Assembly (NCBI GenBank): GCA_965261355.1
Contig: CBDHDK010000002.1
Coordinates: 268,637 to 332,636 of the forward strand
Source: Dehalococcoidia bacterium
GTDB lineage: Bacteria > Chloroflexota > Dehalococcoidia > Lucifugimonadales > UBA3495
Reading direction: 5' to 3'
Length of the DNA: 64,000 nt
Position numbers and translations under genes: made by a program. This document shows, one piece after another, positions 3,959 to 48,891 of this stretch (position 1 is its first letter; each line of letters starts with the position of its first letter). The notes below the pieces were generated by a model. The model worked only from the letters and a program-made list of their open reading frames with translations, had not been told where the DNA came from and searched no databases.

Positions 3959-4017
3959 TTTCAAAAATTTAGCTCCCCCGCCTTTGCACAGAGAGGGAGC
4001 TTGACTGGAGGAACGAG

Positions 4018-5319
4018 ATGAACCCCCAACCTACTATTTACTCTACGGCAACCGCTTTGCGAGGTCAAGACAATGCTGCCACCGGGCGCCGTCAGCTCGG
4101 GCTGGAAATAGCAGCGACGATCAAGATTGGCAAAAACCGCGCGGGGTACGTGGTTCCCTCGCAGTCCGGCACCGGCTCGTATCTGGTGAATTTGGATGGT
4201 GAGCCCTTCTGCACCTGCCCCGATTTCGAATTGCGGCAAGAGCCCTGCAAGCACATCTTCGCGGTTGAGTTCCTTGTCCAACGGGAGGGTGCGCCGAGAA
4301 ACCCAACAAAAACCGACAAAGGAGCCCGAGAGTCCACCACGGACAGAGACTGGTCCGCCTACAACGATGCACAGGCCAACGAGGGGAGGCTCTTTCCCGC
4401 TTTACTAAGAGAGCTTTGCGACGCCGTGCCCCAACATCCGAGGTCCAAGGGGCGTCCGAGATTGCCGCTTGGCGATGTGCTGCACGCTGCTTGCACAAAA
4501 GTTTATAGCACTAGGTCCACTCGTCGGGCTATGGCGGAAATCTCTGACGCCAAAGCGAACGGGTACCTTAGCAAGGCACCGTCGGTCGCCAGTGTCTTCC
4601 GGTGTATTGAGAACCCAGAGCTAACCCCTGTCCTACAGGACCTGATCGCAATGAGCGCTCTGCCGCTTCGTACGACCGAGGTCGACTTCGCCATAGACGC
4701 CAGCGGTTTTTCCTCTTCGGTTTACGAGAACTGGCACGACCACAAATGGGTCCGCCGCGGCGAGAACACACTGTGGGTCAAGGGTCACATTTGCTGCGGC
4801 GTCCGAAGCAACATCATCACCGCCGCTGTTGCCACCCCAGGAACTGCGAACGACGCTCCGTTTTTCACCCCACTCCTGGAGGCCACAGCCCCGAATTTCC
4901 GGGTGGATTCCGTCTCTGCGGACAAGGCCTATCTGAGCCGGAAAAACTTGGGGGTGATTGAGGCCCTTGGGGCAAGCGCTCGCATTCCTTTCAAGTCGAA
5001 TTCGGCTATGTCCGCAGCAAAAAAGCGGCGCGATCCGGTGTGGGAGCGAAACTTCCGCTTTTTCCATGATCATCGCAGCGAGTTCCTAGAGGGCTACCAC
5101 AAGAGGTCGAATGTTGAAACCGTCTTTTCGATGGTGAAGAGCAGGTTCGGGGGCTCTGTACGTTCCAAGACCCCAGCCGCTCGACTGAACGAGGTGCTTC
5201 TCAAATTCCTCTGCCACAACCTTTGTGTAGTGATCAAGGCGAAGTACGACCTCGGTATTGAGCCCGACTTTGATTCGGGGCCGCGTGAGGTCAACTCGTG
5301 GTTCCCGATGGCGGCGTAG
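4018..5319 (+). CDS. Transposase with N-terminal SWIM zinc finger and IS4/IS5-type DDE core
   Basis: CTCPDF..CKH SWIM motif; AIDASG, SADKAY, YHKRSNVETVFSMVK. Confidence 0.85.
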   Translation: MNPQPTIYSTATALRGQDNAATGRRQLGLEIAATIKIGKNRAGYVVPSQSGTGSYLVNLDGEPFCTCPDFELRQEPCKHIFAVEFLVQREGAPRNPTKTDKGARESTTDRDWSAYNDAQANEGRLFPALLRELCDAVPQHPRSKGRPRLPLGDVLHAACTKVYSTRSTRRAMAEISDAKANGYLSKAPSVASVFRCIENPELTPVLQDLIAMSALPLRTTEVDFAIDASGFSSSVYENWHDHKWVRRGENTLWVKGHICCGVRSNIITAAVATPGTANDAPFFTPLLEATAPNFRVDSVSADKAYLSRKNLGVIEALGASARIPFKSNSAMSAAKKRRDPVWERNFRFFHDHRSEFLEGYHKRSNVETVFSMVKSRFGGSVRSKTPAARLNEVLLKFLCHNLCVVIKAKYDLGIEPDFDSGPREVNSWFPMAA

Positions 5320-5464
5320 GTACATCAGGACGCATGGGGCCTGACCCATCAGTCGCGCCCCCATGCGTTCAAGCACCCGGCCTGCCGACGAGGTGACAAC
5401 TCTCGCCAAGACGGTTACAGCCGGAACGGATTATCGAAGGTACGACTTCTACGCGAGGAGGTCT

Positions 5465-6067
5465 ATGGAAACACAGAGCTATAGGCCCGTTCTGGACGCT
5501 CTGACCCAGCAGTATGACAACCTGGGTCGCGAGATCAAGGAAAAGATGGAACTACAGGCCGCAATGGGGATGGTGAGGATCCATTTCGAAAGACTGAGTA
5601 GGTACGATGGCCGCGACGAACCGTACAGGCGTCCGGAGAATGCTGAAACCAGCTTGATCGGCCTGTATGTGGATTTCGGAGGCGCTCGCAACCTTCTCCA
5701 GCGGATACTGAGGATAGGCGATGCAGCTGAAGGGAAGCTCCTGAACGCCACAATGGTCGCAAATTTCCTTATCGAAACCGGGCAATCTCGAGGAAATCTG
5801 AATAGCCTCCGCCGGGAAGTGGGCCAAACATTCAAGCGGCATCCAGAGTATTTTGAGCCGGTGTCAACCGGAACTGTCAGATTCCTAGGCAGGAACGCGA
5901 CTGTTCCGGTCCCTCCCTTGGGGAGCAGATTGCCCAATTGGACGGGTGGCAAAGGACGTAATGGACACAGATATAGCGAATCTGACCAAGGTCTCACTGA
6001 TTTCGGGCAGGAGTTCGATTCTTCCTTGTCCGAAGGAGGTGAAGTAACGGATGAATATTATGACTAA
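5465..6067 (+). CDS. Hypothetical coiled-coil plus putative winged-HTH protein (paralog B)
   Basis: RBS gaggagg before ATG 5465; shares DFxGxxNL..R, LLNxTxVAxFLIExGxS and FExVSxGTxR with paralog A. Confidence 0.7.
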   Translation: METQSYRPVLDALTQQYDNLGREIKEKMELQAAMGMVRIHFERLSRYDGRDEPYRRPENAETSLIGLYVDFGGARNLLQRILRIGDAAEGKLLNATMVANFLIETGQSRGNLNSLRREVGQTFKRHPEYFEPVSTGTVRFLGRNATVPVPPLGSRLPNWTGGKGRNGHRYSESDQGLTDFGQEFDSSLSEGGEVTDEYYD

Positions 6068-6098
6068 GGTAAAACTCCCCGGAAACCGGGCGGACACA

Positions 6099-6691
6099 GC
6101 GCCGCCCACTTCCCCGCCGTCAAGACTCTGGACACCCTCGACTTCCCGGTAATCCCGTCGCTGAACAAGGCGCTGGTGATGGAACTGGCACGCTGTGAAT
6201 ACATCCAGCGCCGGGAGAACGTCATCGCCGTCGGCAACAACGGCACCGGCAAGACCCACGTGGCCCTTGGGCTGGGGCTGGCCGCCAGCCAGCGGGGCAT
6301 GTCCGTGGGTTTCACCACCGCCGCCGCCCTGGTCCACGAGATGATGGAGGCCCGGGACGAGAGACGGCTGCAAAATCTCCAGCGGCAACTGTCCCCGCTC
6401 AACCTGCTGATCATCGACGAACTGGGCTTCGTGCCCCTGTCCCGCACCGGCGCGGAACTGCTCTTCGAGGTCTTCAGCCAGCGCTACGAGCGGGGCTCCA
6501 CAATGGTGACCACTAATCTTCCCTTCGATGAATGGACCGAGGTCTTCGGTTCGGAACGGCTCACCGGAGCGCTGCTGGACCGGCTCACCCACCACGCCCC
6601 AATCCTGGAGATGAACGGCGAGAGCTACCGCCTCAAGCGCAGCAGGGAGAACGCTGCAGCACAAGCCCCGGACGAATCAGACAACCCATAA
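6099..6691 (+). pseudogene. istB: 5'-truncated IS21 istB ATPase
   Basis: GTGKTH, LIIDELG, ALLDRL; close relative of 12428-13210. Confidence 0.85.
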
Positions 6692-6833
6692 GCCGTGCCA
6701 GAAGCCGTCCTCACTCACTCACCCGCCCAGCCAGCTGCCAGCCTGCCTCTGTGACACTTCTCCCGAACAACTGGCGCGGACATTTACGCTGGCCAATGAC
6801 CTCTCTGGTGATACATTTTTGCTCCGCCCCAGT

Positions 6834-7067
6834 TGTTGACGTCCAGCAAAAAGGTCCTCGCTAACAGGCCAGCATAAATGTCACATTCACCCTATGGAGA
6901 ATGTGACTTTGACTCCCAAGGAACAGACAAGACTACAGGTTCTCAACAGCCTGATGGCAGAGCACATGACGTTGGATCAGGCGGCCACGCTGATGGGTGT
7001 CAGCACCAGGCACACGAGGCGTATGCTGGCGGCCTACCGGGAGAAGGGAGTTGCCTCGGTTGTCCAC
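6834..7067 (+). mobile_element. IS1202-like (ISNCY) element, left end and 5' fragment
   Basis: Near-identical to 13317-13550. Confidence 0.85.
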
Positions 7068-7119
7068 GACGACCCGGGCCGCAACATAGGGCGCCCCCGA
7101 TCATCAAACCGGCCGACAA

Positions 7120-7437
7120 TCACAGGAGCAAGTCCGCCGGATCGGTATCGAGAAACTCGACCTCAAACTCGGAGTCGCGCAGGCCGGCGGATTCAACCCT
7201 GGCGAACACATGCTCCAACGAGCCGGCCACGGCTATAACCCCGTTCCGGCCCACCGCCACCCATTGGTCAGGGTACAGTTCCATCAGGGCGCCCCGCTCC
7301 CGATTCATGCGCAGGACGGCCTCGCGGAACTCCTCTCTCCTCTCCCGCAGGGCCTCAACGCCGCCCAGCCGGTCGATGATCGCCTGCACATCCGCCTCAT
7401 CCATCGGGCGTCTTCCACCACCGGCGGTTTCGGGCAT
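7120..7437 (-). CDS. DUF5678-like small protein
   Basis: LMELYPDQWVAV..GVIAVA motif; RBS aggag. Confidence 0.55.
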   Translation of the reverse strand: MPETAGGGRRPMDEADVQAIIDRLGGVEALRERREEFREAVLRMNRERGALMELYPDQWVAVGRNGVIAVAGSLEHVFARVESAGLRDSEFEVEFLDTDPADLLL

Positions 7438-7532
7438 GGCTCTCCTGCCAGTCAGAAAACGGCATTGCCATGCGGGTGCGTACAAGGTTACATACGCCGG
7501 AACAGACGGTCAAGGACAGACCCAGCAGCCCC

Positions 7533-7665
7533 CAGGACGATTGCAAAGTCTTCTACAACCCCGTCATGGTGAGCCTGTCGAACCATCGGTGGCTAGTATG
7601 GGCATCCTTCGACAAGCTCAGGATGAGCAGAAACCGATAGGCGACGTTACTTTGCAATCGTCCTG
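7533..7665. mobile_element. MITE with ISAs1-type ends enclosing a REP-like hairpin
   Basis: Perfect 17-bp TIR caggacgattgcaaagt, identical to the ISAs1 end at 11409-11425. Confidence 0.7.
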
Positions 7666-7741
7666 GGGGGAGGGGTTGCCGAGCGGACAACCCCGCGTCA
7701 AAGCGGCTATAATGCCGCTCCATCAGCCAAGTGGAGGGCCG

Positions 7742-8143
7742 GTGAGCAGAGCCAAGCGGGCAATGGCCGCCCTCGCCATCGTGGTTGCCGCCCTAGTAGT
7801 GGCCGGGGCGTACCTCCTCGCTGGTGATCTGCAGGGCCCAGGGGCCGATGGGCCGTTCAGAATCGACGCCGCGCACTGCAACGGCGGCGCTCCCTACATG
7901 CTCCTGTGGGACCGGGCAAGCTTGGAACTCGGGAACCCGCCGGACTTCTTGGTCGAGAACGTCCGCATGGAGTTCAGGGTGGGGGAGCCGGGCTGGTCGG
8001 CCCTAAGAGTGCTGTCCCTTGAGATGGTTCTGTTAGCTGACGGCAAGGCTTACCTGGCCAGCGGCCACGTTGAGATACACGACTGCAGACTGGAAGACTT
8101 CAAGATTGTGGAGGGCATCAGGAAGGTGGGGGAACACCGGTAG
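7742..8143 (+). CDS. Hypothetical membrane-anchored protein
   Basis: GTG with ggagg RBS; N-terminal hydrophobic helix. Confidence 0.5.
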   Translation: MSRAKRAMAALAIVVAALVVAGAYLLAGDLQGPGADGPFRIDAAHCNGGAPYMLLWDRASLELGNPPDFLVENVRMEFRVGEPGWSALRVLSLEMVLLADGKAYLASGHVEIHDCRLEDFKIVEGIRKVGEHR

Positions 8144-8574
8144 GGCGCGCTGGAATCCCGTCCAGATGCAGCGACGTTCCCTATCCGCAATCACTTGAGG
8201 GGCCTAGCACGCACGATCCCGAAATCCGGCACCGAGATAGCCCGCCCGCGTTGACGCCTTTCGTCAGAACGTCGGCGGATCCGGGACCAAGTTAAGAGCC
8301 GGAACCAAGTGGCGGAATTTTCTCGATACCAGGGCAATCGCGTCTTAATCTATGGTGCATAATGAGTATCTACCGCATTGATGGTCCTCCCGAATACCAG
8401 CATTTTGGGACCAACCTCGCCTGTCCCGGAGTCATCCTGGGCCTTGCTCCAGCCCAATTTCCAGTGCCATCAGAGCTTCGCCCCAGGGTTTTGAGCGCTG
8501 TCAATGACGGGTTAGAAATGAGCCATTTGTAACGGGTTGGAACTAAGCCACATCGTTGATGTCCAGCGATTCTG

Positions 8575-10619
<2,045 letters not shown>

Positions 10620-10715
10620 GCACCTCCGCCAAGTGTCCGGCGATGATGCCCCAGCTATCGAGGTGGCTCAATTCCAGTCCGTAATTTTTGGCTCAGTTTA
10701 AGCCCGTTATTAACA

Positions 10716-11425
10716 CAGCAAATTCCTCTGCCAATGCCGCCAGCACCTGGGGTTGGTTCCCCTTGATGCGCACCAGGCAGTCTCGTCCGTGGCTCACGAT
10801 GGCCTGGCACAGGTCCCGCTCCGCATACAGAGCGTCCATGGTCAGCAGCCTCAGGCCGGGATAGCGCTCGAACAGTTTCCCCAACTGTTCCCGCAACACC
10901 CAGGGTTCGTACCGTTTCTCCGATGCCGGCCACTGGGCCAGGCACAGCTTCAGGTCATGGGCCAGTACGTTCACCATCACCAGAGGATTGCCGCTTACGT
11001 CCTCAGACTGCTTGGCCCATTTGCCGTCCACCGAGGCGTGCACCTCCTGGTCCGCCACCGCCTGGGCCACCCATCCCGCCAGGGCGCCCTGCAGCTGCTC
11101 ATAAGGGACCCCGGCCAAGGTGCGGGAGATGGTGGTGGCGTGGGGCGGATGGTCCCGCACAAAGCCCAAAGGCTCCCTCAGCACCGGCCAGTGCATCTTG
11201 GCGAAGAGGGCGATGTGGGCCATGGTGGTCTGACCACAAACCAAGCCCAGCAGGGTCAGCCGGAGGATGGCCTGAAAGGGATGCCGGCACTCCCCTGGCC
11301 CTCCTGGGATCCGGCACCAGTTCCAAACATCCGAACAGAGATTCCGCCGCCTCCATATCCGCACACTCCCATATCTCACTTCCCTGTCTTTATAAACTTC
11401 CCTCCGTGACTTTGCAATCGTCCTG
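10716..11425 (-). pseudogene. ISAs1-family transposase remnant with left end
   Basis: VPDPRRARG..HPF, SVDGKW, TMDALY, IKGNQP; frameshifted and truncated by IS21-A. Confidence 0.8.
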
Positions 11426-12431
11426 GGCCGAGACCACCGAGGCCTTCCTGGACGGCCACGTAGCAGCCTTCGCCTTTCTGGGCGGAGTCCCCCAGAGCAT
11501 CCTCTACGACAACACCAGGCTGGCGGCGGCGAGGATCCTGGGCGACGGCCGGCGTCAACGCACCCGCGCCTTCACCGAGCTGCAGTCCCACTACCTGTTC
11601 GAGGACCGGTTCGGCCGTCCCGGCAAGGGCAATGACAAGGGCAAGGTGGAAGGCTTGGTGGGGTACATGCGCCGCAACTTTCTGGTGCCGGTGCCGTCCT
11701 TCGAAAGCTTTGATGCGCTCAATGCCTACTTGGAGCGACGATGCCTGGAACGAATGGACGCCAAGCTCAGGGGACATACGGAGACGATTGGCCAGCGGAT
11801 GGAGCGGGACCTGGACGCCCTGCTGCCCCTGCCTCCGGTGGCCTACGACGCTTGCGATAAGCAGGTTGGCCGGGTGAGTTCGCTGTCCCTGGTAAGGTAC
11901 AGGACCAACGACTACTCGGTGCCGGTGGCCTACGGATACCGGGACGTGCTGGTACGGGGATATGTGGACCAGGTGGTGATCAGCTGCGGGTCCGAGGTCA
12001 TCGCCAGGCACCGCCGATCATACGAGCGCGACGACTTCGTCTACGACCCCATCCACTACCTGCCGCTCTTGGAGCGTAAGCCGGGAGCTCTGGACCAGGC
12101 CGCACCCCTGCAGGGCTGGGAACTCCCCGATGAGTTTGGGACGCTGCGCCGGCTGCTGGAGTCCCGCATGGGACGGCGGGGCAAGCGGGAGTACGTGCAG
12201 GCGCTGAGGCTGCTGGAGACCTTCTCCCTGCAGGAAGTGCACGCAGCGGTAAAGGACGCCCTCCGGCTGGAAGCCATCAGCTTCGACGCCGTCAAGCACT
12301 TGGTGCTGTGCCGGCTGGAGGGGCGGCCGCTCAGGCTGGACCTGGAGCTCTATCCCTACCTGCCCCGGGTCAGAGTCAGCACCACGTCCGCCATGGACTA
12401 CATGACCCTGTTGTCGGGGAGAGCGGCATGA
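11426..12431 (+). pseudogene. istA: 5'-truncated istA of a second IS21 (IS21-B)
   Basis: LYDNTR, GNDKGKVEGLVG; begins at the ISAs1 end. Confidence 0.85.
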
Positions 12432-13210
12432 ACGACCGGTCGACGCTGCTATTGGAACACCATCTCAAAGAGCTGAAGCTGCCCAGCTTCCTGAGAGAGT
12501 ACGGGAAGATGGCTGCCCTGTGCGCCGCCGAGGGGGTGGACCATCCCCAGTACCTGCTCAGGCTGGCTGAGCTTGAGCTCATCGACCGCCACCAGCGCAT
12601 GGTGGAGCGGCGGATCCGCGCCGCCCGTTTCCCCGCGGTCAAGAGCCTGGACACCCTCGACTTTCCGGCCATCCCGTCGCTGAACAAGTCCCTGGTGATG
12701 GAACTGGCACGCTGTGAATACATCCAGCGCCGGGAGAATATCATCGCCGTTGGCAACAGCGGCACCGGCAAGACCCACGTGGCTCTGGGACTGGGCCTCG
12801 CCGCCTGCCAGCGCGGACTCTCAGTGGGTTTCACCACCGCCGCCGCACTGGTCCACGAGATGATGGAGGCCAGGGACGAAAGGCGCCTGCTGAACTTACA
12901 GCGACAACTGTCCCGGCTCAACCTGCTGATCATCGACGAACTGGGCTTCGTGCCGCTCTCCCGCACCGGAGCGGAACTGCTCTTCGAGGTCTTCAGCCAA
13001 CGCTACGAGCGGGGCTCCATCCTGGTGACCACCAATTTGCCCTTCGACGAGTGGACCGAGGTCTTCGGCTCGGAACGGCTCACCGGAGCCCTGCTGGACC
13101 GGCTCACCCATCACGTCCACATCCTGGAGATGAACGGCGAAAGCTACCGGCTCAAGCGTAGCAGGGAAACCGCCGCGTCCCAAGCTCCAGACGATCGCGA
13201 GGAAGAATAG
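12428..13210 (+). CDS. istB: IS21 helper ATPase IstB
   Basis: GNSGTGKTH, LIIDELG; ATGA overlap with istA. Confidence 0.9.
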   Translation: MNDRSTLLLEHHLKELKLPSFLREYGKMAALCAAEGVDHPQYLLRLAELELIDRHQRMVERRIRAARFPAVKSLDTLDFPAIPSLNKSLVMELARCEYIQRRENIIAVGNSGTGKTHVALGLGLAACQRGLSVGFTTAAALVHEMMEARDERRLLNLQRQLSRLNLLIIDELGFVPLSRTGAELLFEVFSQRYERGSILVTTNLPFDEWTEVFGSERLTGALLDRLTHHVHILEMNGESYRLKRSRETAASQAPDDREEE

Positions 13211-13316
13211 GGCACACCGCCAACGCTGTCTCCTCCTGCTCCTGTAACGTCCCCACTCCGACCGCTTTACTGCCGTCTGTCATCACGTCGGTGGTACACG
13301 ATCACGCCGCCCCAGT

Positions 13317-14960
13317 TGTTGACGTCCAGCAAAAAGGTCCTCGCTAACAGGCCAGCATAAATGTCACATTCACCCCATGGAGAATGTGACTTTGACTCCC
13401 AAGGAACAGACAAGACTACAGGTTCTCAACAGCCTGATGGCAGAGCACATGACGTTGGATCAGGCGGCCACGCTGATGGGTGTCAGCACTCGGCACACCA
13501 GGCGCATCCTGGCGGCCTACCGGGAGAGGGGAGTTGCCGCAGTTGCCCACGGCCACCGGGGTCGCAGAGCGCCCAATGCTACCCCCGAGGCCGTTTTGGA
13601 CGATGTGGTTCATCTGGCTGGCAAGAGGTACCCAGGGGCCAACCACACCCATCTCAGCGAGTTGCTGAGCGAACACGAGGGCATCGACATCGGCAGGACC
13701 ACGCTCAGACGCATCCTGGTCAACGCCGGGCTGAAGAGTCCACGGCGAAGGCGTCCTCCCAAGCACCGGGTACGCCGCCAGCGAATGCCCCGGGAGGGGA
13801 TGCTGCTCCAGGTGGACGGCAGCTTCCACCCGTGGTTGGGGGATCAGGTTCCGCCGTTCACGTTGCTGATCGCAGTGGATGATGCCACCGGCACGGTGGC
13901 CGACGCCCTGTTCTGCGAGAAGGAGGAGGCCTACACCTATTTCCTGCTGGTCCAGGACTTGGTGCAGAGCGCTGGCATTCCCGTGGCCCTCTACGTCGAC
14001 CGGCACGGGGTCTTCAGGCACACACCAGGGTCCGGCCTCCCTACGACGTCGACCCAGTTCAGCCGGGCCATGGACGAGTTGGGGATACAGATGATATTCG
14101 CCCTCTCTCCACAAGCCAAGGGTCGCGTGGAGCGGGCTGCTGGAACCTTTCAGGACCGGCTGGTCACCGAACTCCGGTTGGCGGGCGCCAGCAGCATCAG
14201 GGAGGCCAACGGGGTGCTGGAGCAGTTTCTGCCGCGATACAACCGGCGCTTCCGGGTCCCCCCGCAATGCTCTGAGTCCGCGTACCGGCCTCTGGGCCCT
14301 GATCTATCCTTGGAGCAGGTCCTGTGCTTCAAGCACCGCAGGAAGGTGGCCAAGGACAATACGGTGAAGTTCCAGCTGCATACGCTGCAGTTGCTGCCGG
14401 AGCCGGAACGCCCCAGCTATGCCGGTGCGGTCGTGGAGGTCCTGGAAGGACTGGACGGCCGGCTCAGGGTGCGCCACGAGGGACGCATCATCAACGCCCA
14501 GGAGGCGCCGCCCAGCCCGGTATTCCTCCGCAACGGCCAGGGCGATTCGGCCACTCCTCTCCTTTCGCCCGCCGGGGCCTACTACTCGGACCAGCGCTGG
14601 GCAGCCACCCTCAAGGCACTGGACTCAAGGACGACGGATGAGGAACATCAAGTGGGCATAACCGGCGGTGCGTCCGCTGCCTTGACACCCGCAACTGTCC
14701 CCCCGCGCAAACCAACCTTCCTGCAGAAGGAGAGATGGAAGGCGATTCAGAAAGCCGGGCGCAAGGGGATGTCGCTGCGGGCGATCGAGAGGGAGTTGGG
14801 AATCCACAGATCCACCATCAAGAAATACATGGACGCCGACGGTCCTCCAGGGCGGCGTTCCCGGCCGGCTCTCACTGCTTAAACATCCGATACAGTGCCG
14901 GCATAAGAAAGTGACATTTATGCTGAACATCTAGCCGGACATTTATGCTGGCCTTCGACA
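13317..14960 (+). mobile_element. Complete IS1202-like (ISNCY) element inside the IS21-B right end
   Basis: TGT..ACA ends with repeated cagcataaatgtc motifs; 7-bp DR ccccagt at 13310-13316 and 14961-14967; IS21 tip resumes to 14993. Confidence 0.88.
13377..14882 (+). CDS. IS1202-like rve transposase with C-terminal HTH
   Basis: LQVDGSFH, AVDDATG, YVDRHG, PQAKGRVER, QDRL; C-terminal GMSLRAIERELGIHRSTIKKY. Confidence 0.88.
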   Translation: MENVTLTPKEQTRLQVLNSLMAEHMTLDQAATLMGVSTRHTRRILAAYRERGVAAVAHGHRGRRAPNATPEAVLDDVVHLAGKRYPGANHTHLSELLSEHEGIDIGRTTLRRILVNAGLKSPRRRRPPKHRVRRQRMPREGMLLQVDGSFHPWLGDQVPPFTLLIAVDDATGTVADALFCEKEEAYTYFLLVQDLVQSAGIPVALYVDRHGVFRHTPGSGLPTTSTQFSRAMDELGIQMIFALSPQAKGRVERAAGTFQDRLVTELRLAGASSIREANGVLEQFLPRYNRRFRVPPQCSESAYRPLGPDLSLEQVLCFKHRRKVAKDNTVKFQLHTLQLLPEPERPSYAGAVVEVLEGLDGRLRVRHEGRIINAQEAPPSPVFLRNGQGDSATPLLSPAGAYYSDQRWAATLKALDSRTTDEEHQVGITGGASAALTPATVPPRKPTFLQKERWKAIQKAGRKGMSLRAIERELGIHRSTIKKYMDADGPPGRRSRPALTA

Positions 14961-14993
14961 CCCCAGTGGCCCAATATCTCGGCGCCATTGACA

Positions 14994-15310
14994 CGGAGCA
15001 GAAGTTGCGCTCCCTGAGCCGCCACACCCAAAAGGTGCGGCCGCAGGTCCAGCAGGCTGCGATCTTCCTCATTATCGTTACACCGTGTAACGCTAAGACC
15101 AGACTACCGGGACAGGCGCTGTTGACCGGGTGTGCCGCCGATCGTGGATCCTGGGAGGCGTGGAAGTGTCCCTTGGTCTGGAGGAAGTTCCTTGTGCCGG
15201 CCGCGGAAGTGGGAGTTGAGAACGATGGCCATGATACCCGCGGCGCACCATCTGCAGTAAGCGCCGTCGGCGGCGGCGCGGTCGCAGTTCCTGCAGGTGG
15301 AGTTGACCAT
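14994..15310 (-). repeat. Copy 1 of a two-ORF zinc-finger module, truncated at the IS21 tip
   Basis: CRNC..CRWC ORF plus CWTC..RNFCS ORF; homologous to 25893-26295 and 44345-44768. Confidence 0.7.
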
Positions 15311-44880: not shown

Positions 44881-45210
44881 TCAGCCGTCGGCCGCAAGCC
44901 TCGCACTTACCAGGCGGTTCAGGCTCACCCCTGCCTCAGCGGCTTGAACGGCCAATGCGCGGTGAGTTTCAGGGGGGACGCGGACCATGAACTTACCGCT
45001 GTAAACGCGATCCGCCATTGGCTCCGGCACTCGCTCGCTGTTGGACTGCATGTCAGCAACACAGTCGGACACCAGTTCGCGAATACCGGAGAAGGCCTCT
45101 TCCTGACTGCCGGACAACCAGCTCAACAGCGGGAACTCTGCGCAGAGACCAACAAATTCTCCATCTTCGGAGGACCAAGTAACTCGATATGTGTAGTGGT
45201 CGATCATCAT
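44881..45210 (-). CDS. hicB: HicB-like antitoxin
   Basis: WS.ED..FVG.C.EFP.LSW; YSGKFMVRVPPE.HR.L...A...GVSLN. Confidence 0.85.
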   Translation of the reverse strand: MMIDHYTYRVTWSSEDGEFVGLCAEFPLLSWLSGSQEEAFSGIRELVSDCVADMQSNSERVPEPMADRVYSGKFMVRVPPETHRALAVQAAEAGVSLNRLVSARLAADG

Positions 45211-45269: not shown

Positions 45270-45527
45270 CTAGGTTCTAAGCTCCTTCTCTAACCGCTCA
45301 AGGGCTTTTATGACTTGCCTGACTTGGTAGTCTTTGGCCATACCGTTGCTACCCCTCTGAATGTTCACCCTTGGGTCCCCGGGCCACGGGGTCCGGTAGA
45401 CCGAGTGGCTGCTTCCCTGCCGCCGTGGTGTTCCGAAGAAACGGTCGCATATCTTGGCGAGGTCTGCGAACCGGATGCCCTTGCGGTTCCTACGGAGTTC
45501 CTGAATCGCCGCGGGAATGCCTTCCAT
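45270..45527 (-). CDS. hicA: HicA-like toxin
   Basis: RFADL..C..FFG.PR..GSSH..Y, AK.YQVRQV. Confidence 0.8.
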   Translation of the reverse strand: MEGIPAAIQELRRNRKGIRFADLAKICDRFFGTPRRQGSSHSVYRTPWPGDPRVNIQRGSNGMAKDYQVRQVIKALERLEKELRT

Positions 45528-45880
45528 ATTTCAAGCCTCGCATTAGTATTCTCTCCTTATCCATCGCTCACCTCTCTTCCATGGAGCTCGAGCTTACGAT
45601 GCCAACATGATATCACTATTGATATCTTTTACCAAGAGACTGTGTGTCTTCAGCAGGGCAACTGTCTGGCCCGGTGCCCTGTGCGTCTGCGCACGCCAGA
45701 CGCTCCTATTCTTGCCGATTCTGTACGAAAACCACCCCTCCGGCGTTGCCTTTGCCTTGACCGATAATTACACTTATCAGACATGGCACAGTCAGCTCAG
45801 CAATGCTGCCGGCACCTCCACGAAGTCTTCGCGGATTATGCCTGCGCTACCGAGGTGGCTCAATTCTGAGTCAGCGATTT

Positions 45881-47513
45881 TGTCATTGCTCTACGATAAC
45901 GTCCGCGTGAATTGCTCAGGGAAAATGTCCGTCTATGAAGGACGTGACATTGAACCAATGAGAGCAGGCAAGACTCCAAGTGCTCAACCGCGTGATGGAA
46001 TATCAACTTCCCAGGGCTCAGGCGGCCGAACTTCTGGGGATCAGCGAACGCCAAGTCCGGCGAATCCTGGCGGCCTACCGGAGGGATGGGGCCGCCGCAC
46101 TGGTCCACGGCAACCGGGGCCGCAAGCCCCGCAACTCGGTCCCCGAGGATGTCGCTGCCACCACGGTCATCCTGGCCAGCACGACCTACTTCGGCTTCAA
46201 CCACAGCCATCTGACCGAGGTCCTGGCAGAGCGGGAGGGCATTCAGCTGAGCCGGCAGACGATAAGCCGTCTGCTCAACCGCCACGGCCTGAACAGTGCC
46301 AGGGGCCATCGTCCCCCCAAACATCGTGTACGCCGGGAGCGTATGCCCCAGGAGGGCATGCTGCTGCAGATCGACGGCAGCCATCATCGCTGGCTGGAGG
46401 ACAGAGGTCCCAGATTCGTATTGCTGCTGGCAGTGGACGCCGCCACCGGCACGGTGGCCAATGCCATATTCCGACCCGAGGAGGACACTCGGGGCTACTT
46501 CCAGCTGATGGATGGGGTAATCCGGCGCTACGGCATCCCCCTGGCTCTCTACGGTGATCGCCACGGGGTCTTCAAGTTCAACGGCAAGCCCCGGCATATC
46601 CCCCAACCGGTGGGCCCAACCCAGTTCACCCGGGCCATGGGTGAACTGGGCATCGAACAGATCTTTGCCCGCTCGCCACAGGCCAAGGGACGCGTGGAAC
46701 GCATGAACGGCACCTTCCAGGACCGGCTGGTCAGCGAACTCAGGCTGGCGGGAGCCGCGACCATCGACCAGGCCAACGCCGCGCTGCGGGACTTCCTGCC
46801 CCGTTTCAACTCTCAATCCCGTGTGCCTGCCCAGCAGCCCCAGGTTGCCTATCGTTCCTTGGCCTCCTCCCTGCATCTGGAACGGATCCTCTGCTTCAAG
46901 CACCTGCGCCAGGTGGCCAGGGACAACACCGTCAAATACCAGTTGCGCACCCTGCAGCTGCTTCCAGTCCAGAACCGGCCCAGCTATGCCGGTGTCAAGG
47001 TGGAGGTGCTGGAGCAGAGCGACGGACAGCTGATGGTGCAGCACGAGGGGAAGGTGATCGCCCACCAGGAAGCTCCGCCCAAGGCGGGAGCGCTGCGGGC
47101 CGCCCAGGGGGCACTGGCTCCTACTCCCGAACTGGCCCAGGTGGTCAGGAACCTGAGCCAGCATGGTCTCACCAAGTTGCAACTGCAGCGCCTGGCCGCC
47201 TTGGAAGCACCCGTCGACCAACCGATGAATGATGAGAGCGGCCCCACCTCTTACACTCCGCCACCCAAGCAGGCAACGCCGCGCAAGCAGGCCCTGTGGA
47301 AAGCTGTCCACCACGCCAAGCTGCAGGGTGTCTCCCTGAGGGGCATCGCCAAGCAACTGGGTATTTCCAGAAACACGGTCAGGAAGTACGTCGACTTGCC
47401 AGCTCCCCCCATCAACCGGACTCCCAGACTGACTGCCCAATCAGTAACTCAGCACCATACCAACGGATATTTTCCCTGAGCACTTGGGCGGACATTTTCG
47501 CTGGACAACGACA
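45881..47513 (+). mobile_element. Second IS1202-like element (transposase 45935-47479, TGA at codon 9) inside an IS21 left-end remnant
   Basis: TGT..ACA ends; 7-bp DR gcgattt at 45874 and 47514; joined flanks match the IS21-A end at about 10605-10715. Confidence 0.88.
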
Positions 47514-47907
47514 GCGATTTTGGCTCACTTTAAGCCCAGCGGTGGCAAAAGGAAGGTTCAGTGATAAATGCCCTCAATCCCCAATCCCCAATCAATTGGG
47601 GGGAGTCCACCCAAATGCGAGACCCGGCGAAAGCCGGGCTTTTGCCTTTTGCCGTCGGCCTTAAGGCCGGAGGAGCGACGCCCTGGGGCGCGTCACTGTT
47701 ATGACAGCAGGCAGTTGAGATTTTGAGGGGCCATAGCGGAAAATAAACCTGAGGCCCGGTTGCGATCGACGAAGAGTATGCGTCGGCAGCGACGCCGCAA
47801 CGGGGCCTCGGCACCAGCAGATAGAAGGACTCCAACAAACAGGCCAAGCTAGCCAGCAAAGCACAGACAGTTTATGGGTAGGTCCATCGAGCGAGGCAGG
47901 CCGCAGC

Positions 47908-48891
47908 ATGAATAAGCACATACAGGCGCGGGCCGAGATACTGAAAGAAGCCCGGTACATCCCTCACGGCAGGTCACGGGGGAGAACGAAGAGTTCCATA
48001 AAAGCCGATGAGTACTGGCCCGCGCCGCCACCGGCTAACCTGCCCGTACAACCAACGGGAGATTGCCTGATTTGGACCGGCCGGCTGAACGGAGACGGGT
48101 ACGGTACGGGCAATTTCCCCAATGGGGTGCATCTGGCCCACGTTCAGGCCTACGCCCAGTCCAGAAAGACAAATCCGAAGCTGGGCCGCTCAATCTGCCA
48201 TCTGTGTCACAGGCCATACTGCATCCAGCCCTCGCACCTGTATGAGGGAGACAACAAGACAAACTCTGACGACCGCCAGCTAAGGTCGGGGAAGGGCACC
48301 ATGGGGCTCGTCTTCCACAAGCACGATGATGTGATGCGGGCAGCAAGATACCGGTGGCCCAGCCCGTCGCCGATCAATGACAGCCTGCTGGCTCCCGATG
48401 CAGTCGAAGTGGAACACGAATGCGAATACATCATCCCGGCCGGGGACGTGGCGATCTGCTCGGTCTGCGAGAAACCGGAAGACCCGAATTTCCATCGGGA
48501 CTCCGGACCTAAGCGTATGCAACCGCCGGACACGGACAGGAACTCGGTCTCGATGGTCAAGTTCGGCAAGGCCGTAACTGAAATAGGCAGCGGCGCGGTT
48601 CTTTGCTCCAACATGGAGGTGGAGCTAGACCTGCCAAAGAACCGGGCGGAAAGACGAAGAAGATTGCGGCAGGCCAAGAAGCAACGTGCCTGGGATGGGC
48701 CGGTCCTGATACATCAGAGGCAAGGGATTGTGCGGGTCAACGACCCGCTGCCCATACAGGTCAACACGGCTGCCCCGTTCGTCGCCCCGAGCGACGGTCT
48801 ACTGGTGGTAACGGTAACAACCAGTCCCCTGGACCGCAGCGAGGCAGAGTTGCTGGACCGGCTTACGCAACGGAGACCCCAAGCTGAGTGA
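47908..48891 (+). CDS. HNH-endonuclease-domain protein
   Basis: CLIWTG....GYG, AH, ICHLC....CIQPSHL..G....N. Confidence 0.75.
   Translation: MNKHIQARAEILKEARYIPHGRSRGRTKSSIKADEYWPAPPPANLPVQPTGDCLIWTGRLNGDGYGTGNFPNGVHLAHVQAYAQSRKTNPKLGRSICHLCHRPYCIQPSHLYEGDNKTNSDDRQLRSGKGTMGLVFHKHDDVMRAARYRWPSPSPINDSLLAPDAVEVEHECEYIIPAGDVAICSVCEKPEDPNFHRDSGPKRMQPPDTDRNSVSMVKFGKAVTEIGSGAVLCSNMEVELDLPKNRAERRRRLRQAKKQRAWDGPVLIHQRQGIVRVNDPLPIQVNTAAPFVAPSDGLLVVTVTTSPLDRSEAELLDRLTQRRPQAE

Follow-up and report, generated by a model that had tools for sequence, protein, structure and literature searches.

IS1202-like insertion sequences with an IstA-type C-terminal helix-turn-helix in the ends of IS21 elements of a Dehalococcoidia genome

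The window analysed here is a stretch of 64,000 nucleotides from a Dehalococcoidia bacterium (GenBank assembly GCA_965261355.1, contig CBDHDK010000002.1, positions 268,637 to 332,636 of the forward strand), and all window coordinates are counted from its first letter. It hosts two complete insertion sequences (ISs) of the ISNCY/IS1202 type, called elements 1 and 2, and a broken third one, all found at terminal repeats of ISs of the IS21 family. The transposases encoded by elements 1 and 2 carry at the C-terminus an additional helix-turn-helix (HTH) resembling the one at the N-terminus of IstA, the IS21 transposase. This module is the probable selector of the insertion site.

Elements lodged between IS21 terminal repeats

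The two complete elements, the third insertion and the IS21 sequences hosting them are the following.

13317..14960, forward strand: element 1, IS of the ISNCY/IS1202 family, 1644 bp, ends TGTTGAC...TTCGACA, set by comparison of genome copies
13310..13316, forward strand: left copy of the 7-bp target duplication of element 1, CCCCAGT
14961..14967, forward strand: right copy of the same duplication, CCCCAGT
13377..14882, forward strand: transposase 1, 501 aa, open reading frame (ORF) ending ...RKGMSLRAIERELGIHRSTIKKYMDADGPPGRRSRPALTA
13290..13309, forward strand: inner terminal repeat (R2) of an IS21-type-B right end, GGTGGTACACGATCACGCCG, directly before the left duplication of element 1
14961..14993, forward strand: outer repeat (R1) and tip of the same IS21-B right end (...GGCGCCATTGACA), separated from R2 by element 1
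12428..13210, forward strand: istB of the targeted IS21-B copy (Pfam IstB_IS21, E 4e-72; Mu-transpos_C_2)
about 11400-12431: C-terminal half of the istA of the targeted IS21-B copy, 5' part missing
45881..47513, forward strand: element 2, second IS of the ISNCY/IS1202 family, 1633 bp, flanked by the 7-bp duplication GCGATTT
45874-45880 and 47514-47520: the two GCGATTT copies
45980..47479, forward strand: transposase 2, 499 aa, 52% identical to transposase 1, ORF ending ...LQGVSLRGIAKQLGISRNTVRKYVDLPAPP...
45854..45873, forward strand: GGTGGCTCAATTCTGAGTCA, the inner repeat in what remains of a left end similar to IS21 type A; the left GCGATTT of element 2 follows immediately
6807..7043, forward strand: third insertion, of the element-1 type, broken or truncated, left end at 6834
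about 10657-10712: unoccupied left-end repeats of the intact IS21-A copy

The motif CAGCATAAATGTC is found twice at each end of element 1. The element lies 33 nt from the tip of the IS21-B right end, between inner and outer repeat, and the 7-bp spacer CCCCAGT separating the two is what has been duplicated. The same site is uninterrupted in more than 10 other IS21-B copies of the genome. On the right side of element 2, the duplication is followed by the outer repeat TGGCTCACTTTAAGCCC. When the site is restored by removing the element, it can be aligned to the left end of the IS21-A copy in the window (10598-10778, about 80% similar), and GCGATTT occupies the place of the IS21-A spacer TAATTTT. 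In the third insertion, an R2-like motif (6807-6826) and the heptamer CCCCAGT (6827-6833) directly precede the left end at 6834. Its first 50 codons (6894-7043) are 98% identical to those of transposase 1, and the sequence further downstream has diverged from element 1. The apparent right end of yet another family element is found just upstream, at 6781-6803, and an istB fragment lies nearby at about 6109-6651.

About ten full-length family copies and many partial ones were detected by tblastn in the source genome. Copy c7, with the duplication CCTTACT, is likewise placed 33 nt from the tip of another IS21-B right end, at the homologous position, and is an independent insertion, since its IS21 copy is clearly more diverged. 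Copies c2 and c3 adjoin the same 31-33-nt IS21-B tip, and c5 and c8 adjoin left ends of two further IS21 types. Insertion is site-specific: the same position in a defined sequence is occupied recurrently, and unoccupied sites are available for comparison. The initial annotation, according to which the elements target IS21 ends, holds for both window copies and for the fragment at 6834, all placed at one precise point between terminal repeats. The family elements are 1632-1690 bp long and encode one ORF each. They are not members of the IS21 family, because no istA-istB pair is found inside them; the istB genes nearby are those of the targeted IS21s.

Copy c2 (contig 3, 1169594-1171111) has a composite organization, in which an ISNCY element separates the only remaining parts of IS21-B, its first 93 and last 33 nt. 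Recombination between two element copies residing in the left and right ends would be expected to give such a structure.

The C-terminal module and the family of the transposases

In the AlphaFold2 model, transposase 1 consists of two N-terminal HTHs (residues 8-57 and 71-116), a DDE fold (142-292), a beta-barrel (318-376), a linker and the C-terminal HTH. Residues 387-442 are disordered (predicted local distance difference test, pLDDT, 27-35), and are followed by three helices (448-462, 467-474 and 478-486) at pLDDT 85-91. The segments relevant to the comparison with IstA are listed below.

14535..14702, forward strand: disordered linker of transposase 1, residues 387-442
14718..14834, forward strand: C-terminal three-helix HTH of transposase 1, residues 448-486, from AlphaFold2 and profiles
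47261..47440, forward strand: core of the C-terminal HTH of transposase 2
9378..10619, reverse strand: intact istA, IS21 type A; the string used in the comparison corresponds to residues 20-41, within HTH-1, at about 10497-10562

The initial annotation had described both transposases as ending in a linker and an extra HTH, and had picked from them 22-residue strings that map to 14766-14831 (transposase 1) and 47327-47392 (transposase 2). ORFs, the AlphaFold2 model of transposase 1 and string coordinates all agree with this description. Its further suggestion of a close resemblance to the IstA N-terminus was examined in several ways, and was reinforced by searches of PDB, NCBIfam and the six-frame translated genome.

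A profile (A2) was built from 38 non-identical 60-residue cores found in the window and in related loci, the core of transposase 1 corresponding to 14700-14879. When compared to every PDB chain sequence, the profile has as top matches the IS5376 IstA chains 8q4d and 8b4h (E 3.6e-11 and 4.2e-11; 46 bits). The third-best match (E 7e-4) is seven orders of magnitude weaker. The alignment spans IstA residues 13-52, which include HTH-1 and the start of the minor-groove linker. In NCBIfam, all of the 38 cores match transpos_IS21 (NF033546) at model positions 3-42 (best E 9.1e-9), while the next family matches 15/38 and the ISL3 HTH model only 4/38 (best E 5.7e-4). The comparison with IstA and ISL3 models called for in the initial annotation thus identifies the HTH as IstA-like, and not generic. 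Pfam was discarded as a discriminator, as it returns generic HTH families only (HTH_23 in 38/38) and has no IS21-specific model.

A profile of the C-terminal 85 residues was also run against all six-frame ORFs of the 4.84-Mb genome. At E<0.01, the sole non-self matches are IstA N-termini, plus one unassigned 107-aa ORF (E 0.008). IstA of type B matches at E 9e-6 to 1.8e-4, the A2 type at 2.6e-5 and the type A of the window at 1.7e-3. The N-terminal HTH of the element itself gave no match at E<0.01 in the same search. When the folded 60-residue core is compared to PDB by Foldseek, four IstA chains rank first (template modelling score, TM, 0.63-0.67; 33% identity), with weak E values of 0.02-0.09. 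In a set of 1.84 billion cluster representatives, the profile of the C-terminal HTH found 396 clusters at E<=1e-10 and 3044 at E<=1e-3. The 150 matches listed are from the same family only; being short fragments or C-termini, they are uninformative on IstA or on other hosts of the domain.

In IstA, as far as the available text of PMC10122671 describes it, residues 1-39 form HTH-1 and residues 55-104 form HTH-2, and the two are joined by a long linker that binds the minor groove. Each IS21 terminal repeat comprises two GC-rich blocks set about 10 A/T-rich bp apart, of which one (CS2) is read by HTH-1 and the other by HTH-2; R31 and K32 contact the major groove (PMC10122671, same text). In the C-terminal modules, the equivalent of R31 is kept in at least 90% of the sequences and the next position varies by clade (S/A/D/N/E/V). 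A PP dipeptide that is invariant or conserved in at least 90% follows the HTH; basic residues come next, and the protein ends thereafter. By profile and fold, the C-terminal module is of the IstA HTH-1 type, with the start of the linker and without HTH-2.

The assignment of the transposases to a family rests on several features. Transposases 1 and 2 score 384 and 399 bits against the NCBIfam equivalog NF033594 (ISNCY_2), for a cut-off of 250. The match covers residues from about 15 to 373 only, and the C-terminal part lies beyond. It is a match to a curated ISNCY model, which may have been derived from IS1202-group members. Signatures of the IS1202 family, given in the portions available of bioRxiv 10.1101/2022.12.17.520857 and PMC10132070, include a glutamine, in place of K/R, after the catalytic E and an extra DD. 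E252 and Q259, seven residues apart, are invariant in 13/13 aligned transposases (VERAAGTFQ in transposase 1). Between the catalytic D147 and D208, an additional DD is found in the same alignment (AVDDATG), where D168 is invariant and D169 conserved in at least 90%. TGT...ACA ends, with a second, internal copy of the transposase site near each end, are similarly present. The modelled order of domains is HTH-HTH-DDE-beta-barrel, and the top Foldseek matches of transposase 1 are IstA, TnsB and MuA. Plasmid genes annotated as ISKpn21 and as the IS1202-like ISEsa1 are 34-37% identical to residues from about 4 to 375.

The target duplication is 7 bp long, being perfect (7/7) at 37/76 unique sites and matching at 6 or more of the 7 positions at 42/76. 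This length corresponds to none of the published IS1202 subgroups (5-6, 15-18 and 24-29 bp). The label of IS1202-like given initially thus stands on all the signatures tested and does not fit any published subgroup by duplication length. As the other signatures are present, the duplication speaks for a new subgroup rather than for exclusion from the family. The elements are probably a 7-bp subgroup of IS1202 which captured an IstA HTH-1.

Among the matches listed for proteobacterial plasmid relatives no module was detected, 22/25 of them stopping near residue 375. In an Agrobacterium rubi plasmid, the one long match that was looked at ends in a low-complexity tail and lacks an IstA-type HTH.

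Insertion sites and C-terminal domains of relatives

The element family is common in the genus and in the order. The sample of relatives is formed by the best 78 loci from a genome collection, all in Dehalococcoidia metagenome-assembled genomes (MAGs). Ends were searched by regular expression, and both were located in 78/97 elements. At 30 of the 76 loci with a central transposase gene, istB or istA is directly beside; in most of these the element is oriented with its left end towards the interior of IS21. IS21 context was flagged automatically, by an adjacent IS21 protein or by the outer repeat and tip, at 38/76 unique sites, and was recognized by eye at several more. A blastn-short search for IS21-B ends had found these in only 13 of 78 loci, because the ends diverge fast, and protein adjacency and motifs were analysed instead. 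Alignment of the 42 unique clean targets reveals GGTGGTAC, an A/T-rich stretch and CCG, ending exactly at the duplication; a few are mirror images.

A target matrix was trained on 16 sites in IS21 context. In the window its highest score (25.9) falls on the R2 repeat at 13290..13309, and the occupied targets score 25.9 and 21.7. The matrix was tested on 21 clean unflagged sites, each compared to all positions of its own flanks: 11/21 score at p<0.05, and six of these at p<0.01. When two evident mirror-image IS21 remnants are left out, 9/19 remain at p<0.05 (binomial 1e-7). The motif GGnnC is found in register in 10/21 unflagged sites, for an expectation of 2.7%. Unflagged sites carry GGnnC..T.TT, a half-site plus a T-tract, in exact register with the insertion. 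In the logo of the 17 left-oriented unflagged sites, G is found at -17 in 15, G at -16 in 14 and C at -13 in 13. T occurs at -10, -8 and -7 in 9, 10 and 12 of them, respectively, and the second GC block is weak. By analogy with IstA, an HTH-1 on its own, extended by a minor-groove arm, would be predicted to recognise just such a half-site followed by a T-tract.

Target motifs vary with the recognition helix of the module. Elements of the GIHRxT clade (57 rows, support 100) are found at GGTAC sites of IS21-B. The GISRNTVRKY clade, to which element 2 belongs, is at TGG(C/G)TCA(A/C)TT of IS21-A in three of four sites, and IS21-A genes adjoin at L129. In the GISRVTVS clade, 4/4 copies of one genome are at TGGATCA, in ends of yet another IS21 type, and the (A/S)(K/R)(N/D)T clade (c5 and c8) is found at the G.C.AATGA repeats of IS21-C/D. 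In contrast, the N-terminal HTHs are near-invariant across the clades, and the terminal transposase site is alike in all, including those that have no C-terminal HTH. When the C-terminal HTH was compared to the HTH-1 of the neighbouring IstA in 28 pairs, H before the conserved R was found to go with IS21-B in 19/20. Residue-level co-variation between the two is not claimed, since pairs are non-independent, exceptions occur and the other clades exhibit no exact mimicry.

At least 10 near-identical copies of the GIHR clade were found in each of two MAGs (L064-L076 and L082-L092), which suggests recent bursts. Only 3/10 copies of the L064-L076 set are in IS21 ends, and most of the others have clean 7-bp duplications elsewhere.

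Relatives lacking the module encode transposases ending in ...HPWRR. These elements measure 1428-1488 bp and their ends are of the same kind, but their duplications are of 15-18 bp, the length of the ISTde1 type. In a class-wide sample, IS21 proteins were detected within 1.5 kb in 0/15 module-less loci and in 11/23 module-bearing loci (Fisher p 0.0011, a value that takes loci as independent and ignores relatedness). Whether the presence of the HTH goes with IS21 targeting across the family had been raised in the initial annotation; in this sample it does, and duplication length differs too. In a quick maximum-likelihood tree with midpoint root, module-less lineages branch at the base and all the module-bearing rows are united in a single clade (support 99), which fits a single gain of the module. 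In genomes G009 and G233, TGTCAA is found directly 5' of the duplication in 5/6 module-less copies (L003, L028, L110 and L139-L141), and these relatives might therefore be selective as well, in their own way.

A monophyletic sub-lineage (7 rows, support 95; L115-L117, L119-L121 and L148) features another C-terminal domain, with the pattern GK.IGRP...G.ISRRQAARELxIGYATLKRLLD. Two of the seven match Pfam HTH_7 (resolvase HTH) at full length. A resolvase origin is kept as a lead only, as the PDB sequence search was non-significant (Hin, E 0.75) and NCBIfam returned nothing. None of these seven loci has a directly adjacent IS21 gene; L117 has an istA fragment about 950 nt off. Their left flanks share motifs in pairs: the palindrome AGAAGG.AATCCTTCT is common to L119 and L120, and GCTCCGAAAC to L116 and L117. 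If the lead holds, the C-terminus is an exchangeable address slot.

Reading of the target and its alternatives

The C-terminal copy of HTH-1 is probably the target reader that places the element between IS21 repeats. Three lines of evidence speak for it, namely the half-site and T-tract in register, the clade-specific helices that go with IS21 subtypes, and the module-less relatives found away from IS21. Of the initial proposal that the HTH had been acquired to recognise IS21 ends, its IstA HTH-1 type and the insertion at IS21 ends are observed, and its role as reader is what we infer from the distribution of sites.

According to this model, a transposase of the IS1202 family would have gained an IstA HTH-1, together with the proline-rich, basic start of the linker, behind a flexible tether of roughly 55 residues. 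The tethered module would bind the GGTAC-like HTH-1 half-site and the adjacent T-rich tract of an IS21 inner repeat, or a look-alike elsewhere; at element 1, the R2 repeat at 13290..13309 is the proposed site of this reading. Once bound, it would hold the transpososome so that strand transfer takes place about 13 bp further on, with a 7-bp stagger, a point that in IS21 ends would fall in the spacer between inner and outer repeat. The element would usually be turned with its left end to the bound repeat. The N-terminal HTHs would read the ends of the element itself, and changes in the recognition helix of the C-terminal module could re-aim the element at other IS21 subtypes, so that a re-targetable specificity is plausible. 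More tentatively, the C-terminus of the transposase may be viewed as a plug-in address slot, holding a captured IstA module that is re-aimed by helix changes and that one sub-lineage, found at other sites, appears to have exchanged for an HTH similar to those of serine recombinases.

IstA needs two complete repeats at each end (PMC10122671, available text), and splitting them should accordingly disable that IS21 end, or the whole copy. A disabled end could be a harmless landing place for the incoming element, and one IS would be parasitising another by splitting its repeats.

Several observations weigh against the role of reader. The other 38/76 unique sites are not flagged as IS21, and some, as L072, are motif-free. 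Copy c9, a close relative of element 2, is inside the coding sequence of istB and not in an end. The correspondence of the GGTAC side to the HTH-1 block (CS2) is deduced from the available part of PMC10122671 and is not a mapped contact. The match of helix to target rests on about four clade contrasts, and does not hold throughout: the helix of L001, found in an IS21-B left end, is SRITVRKY, L102 (HR type) adjoins an istA of the IS21-C type, and L122 has D where the neighbouring IstA has H. The comparison of module-bearing and module-less elements is confounded, because duplication lengths also differ. Evidence comes from insertion sites in assemblies, many of them MAGs, and all p-values are optimistic, because copies and clades are related and many sequences are from MAGs. 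Finally, the end sites of element 1 itself are among the five best matches to the target matrix in this element, with scores of only 1.7-1.9.

The last point leads to the main alternative, considered such because the element's own end sites resemble the target in outline. The N-terminal HTHs might recognise also the end-like IS21 repeats, as if these were ends of the element, with insertion occurring head-to-head, and the C-terminal HTH would serve end binding, assembly or regulation. The reverse complement of an IS21-B repeat variant, CGGAGCAAAAGTGTACC, resembles the terminal site of element 1, GTCCAGCAAAAAGGTCC, and both are 7 nt from the junction; both kinds of end are made by GAC, an A/T-rich stretch and a GC block, 7 nt from the cut. 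By target matrix, the own-end sites rank third and fourth of all element 1 positions. IstA and the transposase are moreover homologous over the HTH-HTH-DDE-barrel region (NF033546, E 1.9e-15), and IstA is the top fold match. However, the own-end scores of 1.7-1.9 are far from the 21.7-25.9 of the occupied targets. Clades differing in target motif have conserved own-end sites and N-terminal HTHs, and the GISRVTVS-clade target TGGATCACTTTTAG looks, by eye, little like the end GCAGCGATTCCGTCAG of the same elements. Module-less relatives have end sites of the same kind, and yet they were found at IS21 in 0/15 loci and generate 15-18-bp duplications. On balance, targeting by the N-terminal HTHs is unlikely.

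Less likely still is that the target is marked by protein or by DNA shape, the C-terminal HTH-1 copy docking on an IstA assembly, or the transpososome preferring the bend that IstA induces at the repeat junction. In the available text of PMC10122671, the DNA of the IstA complex is bent by about 70 degrees, with the strongest curvature close to where R1 meets R2, and HTH-1 is extensively engaged with HTH-2 and DDE domains; the elements insert exactly at the R1-R2 junction. A contact with XerC has been proposed for dif-targeting relatives of ISAjo2 (PMC10132070, available text). Against a marked target are the unflagged sites, which keep only the half-site and T-tract (GGnnC in register in 10/21), and the solo end remnants with no istA nearby which are hit as well, as by element 2. 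The conserved R31 equivalent and the basic PP arm point to contact with DNA.

A passive association, with near-random insertion, survival of the copies in other ISs as harmless and the C-terminal HTH being an unrelated regulatory or end-binding addition, might be suggested by the richness of these genomes in ISs and by several insertions in genes of other mobile elements (c9 in istB; L067 in an apparent IS256-type transposase gene, recognized by eye from translated flanks, no family search having been made), but it is highly improbable, as selective survival cannot explain why independent, diverged IS21 copies are hit at one and the same nucleotide and 7-bp spacer (the IS21 copies flanking c1 and c7 are much more different from each other than the two elements are), nor why unflagged sites have the motif in register, and IS21 ends are only about 0.1% of the genome, as estimated from istB matches.

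Reading by the C-terminal module can be compared to systems already described. ISAjo2 and ISAba32, which target dif/pdif sites in Acinetobacter, are similar for the glutamine after the catalytic E, the extra DD, the TGT...ACA ends, the second site at each end and the HTH-HTH-DDE-beta-barrel order (PMC10132070 and bioRxiv 10.1101/2022.12.17.520857, portions available). They too are placed in a constant orientation, a short and constant distance away from a site bound by another recombination system (same sources). They differ in having 5-6-bp duplications at XerC/D sites, whereas here duplications are of 7 bp at an IS21 terminal repeat, and their C-terminus is described, in the same portions, as non-conserved or bi-helical with no targeting domain assigned, whereas here an IstA HTH-1 is recognisable. 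In the available text of either paper IS21 is mentioned nowhere (0 occurrences). No published description of IS21-end targeting or of this C-terminal HTH was found in a search that left aside the supplements of the IS1202 papers, which possibly contain C-terminus alignments. The other obvious reference is HTH-1 of IstA itself (IS21/IS5376; 8B4H, 8Q4D), to which the module aligns over residues 13-52, with the R31 equivalent and the PP/basic continuation being kept. In IstA, HTH-1 is N-terminal, is followed by HTH-2 and reads the ends of its own element; here the domain is C-terminal and tethered, and HTH-2 is missing. The elements carry no istB, and the transposase has ends of its own that are unlike those of IS21.

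Homing to harmless defined sites, owned by the host or by a second mobile element, is known for Tn7-like and Tn5053-type elements (TnsD/TniQ; 'res hunters') and for IS1111-family elements entering the inverted repeats of Tn21-type transposons. Tn7-like and Tn5053 elements use separate selector proteins and IS110/IS1111 an RNA guide, whereas the selector proposed here is a small domain fused to a DDE transposase and copied from the transposase of the victim. IS30-type elements insert head-to-head beside end-like sequences through the end-binding domain of their transposase, which acts on its own repeat. Here, by contrast, targets are the ends of another family, and specificity varies by clade while own ends are constant.

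Simple DDE ISs are mostly loose in target choice, and precision is achieved mainly via a separate selector protein or a guide RNA. A flexibly tethered domain of roughly 45 residues, visibly copied from the transposase of another element, may suffice for nucleotide-exact placement. If so, this would be a natural, compact, protein-only way of programming the insertion of a DDE transposase, and a small natural scaffold for studying DNA-binding add-ons that steer integration. It would also explain how the variable C-terminus of the IS1202 family can set target specificity, a question without an answer so far for the members targeting dif sites, which travel together with resistance modules on Acinetobacter plasmids, and would be a documented case of one IS exploiting the ends of a second. 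Annotators should note that an IS21 copy split in this way is probably inactive, and that at c2 a rearranged composite is found, made by an IS21 left end, an ISNCY element and an IS21 right end.

The region of the window from about 4000 to 15000 is a pile-up of at least five IS types. A fragment of an ISAs1/IS4-like transposase (Pfam DDE_Tnp_1_assoc; 10693-11379, reverse strand) is found between the IS21-A tip and the truncated IS21-B istA. A gene for a HicB-family antitoxin (44881-45210, reverse strand) lies directly left of the IS21-A-like remnant that hosts element 2, and a small ORF (45270-45527, reverse strand; no Pfam match) is found upstream of it, in the position of a HicA toxin. To the right of element 2, a 327-aa ORF (47908-48891, forward strand) weakly resembles the zinc-binding loop of His-Me homing endonucleases (E 8.9e-6, narrowly missing the Pfam cut-off).

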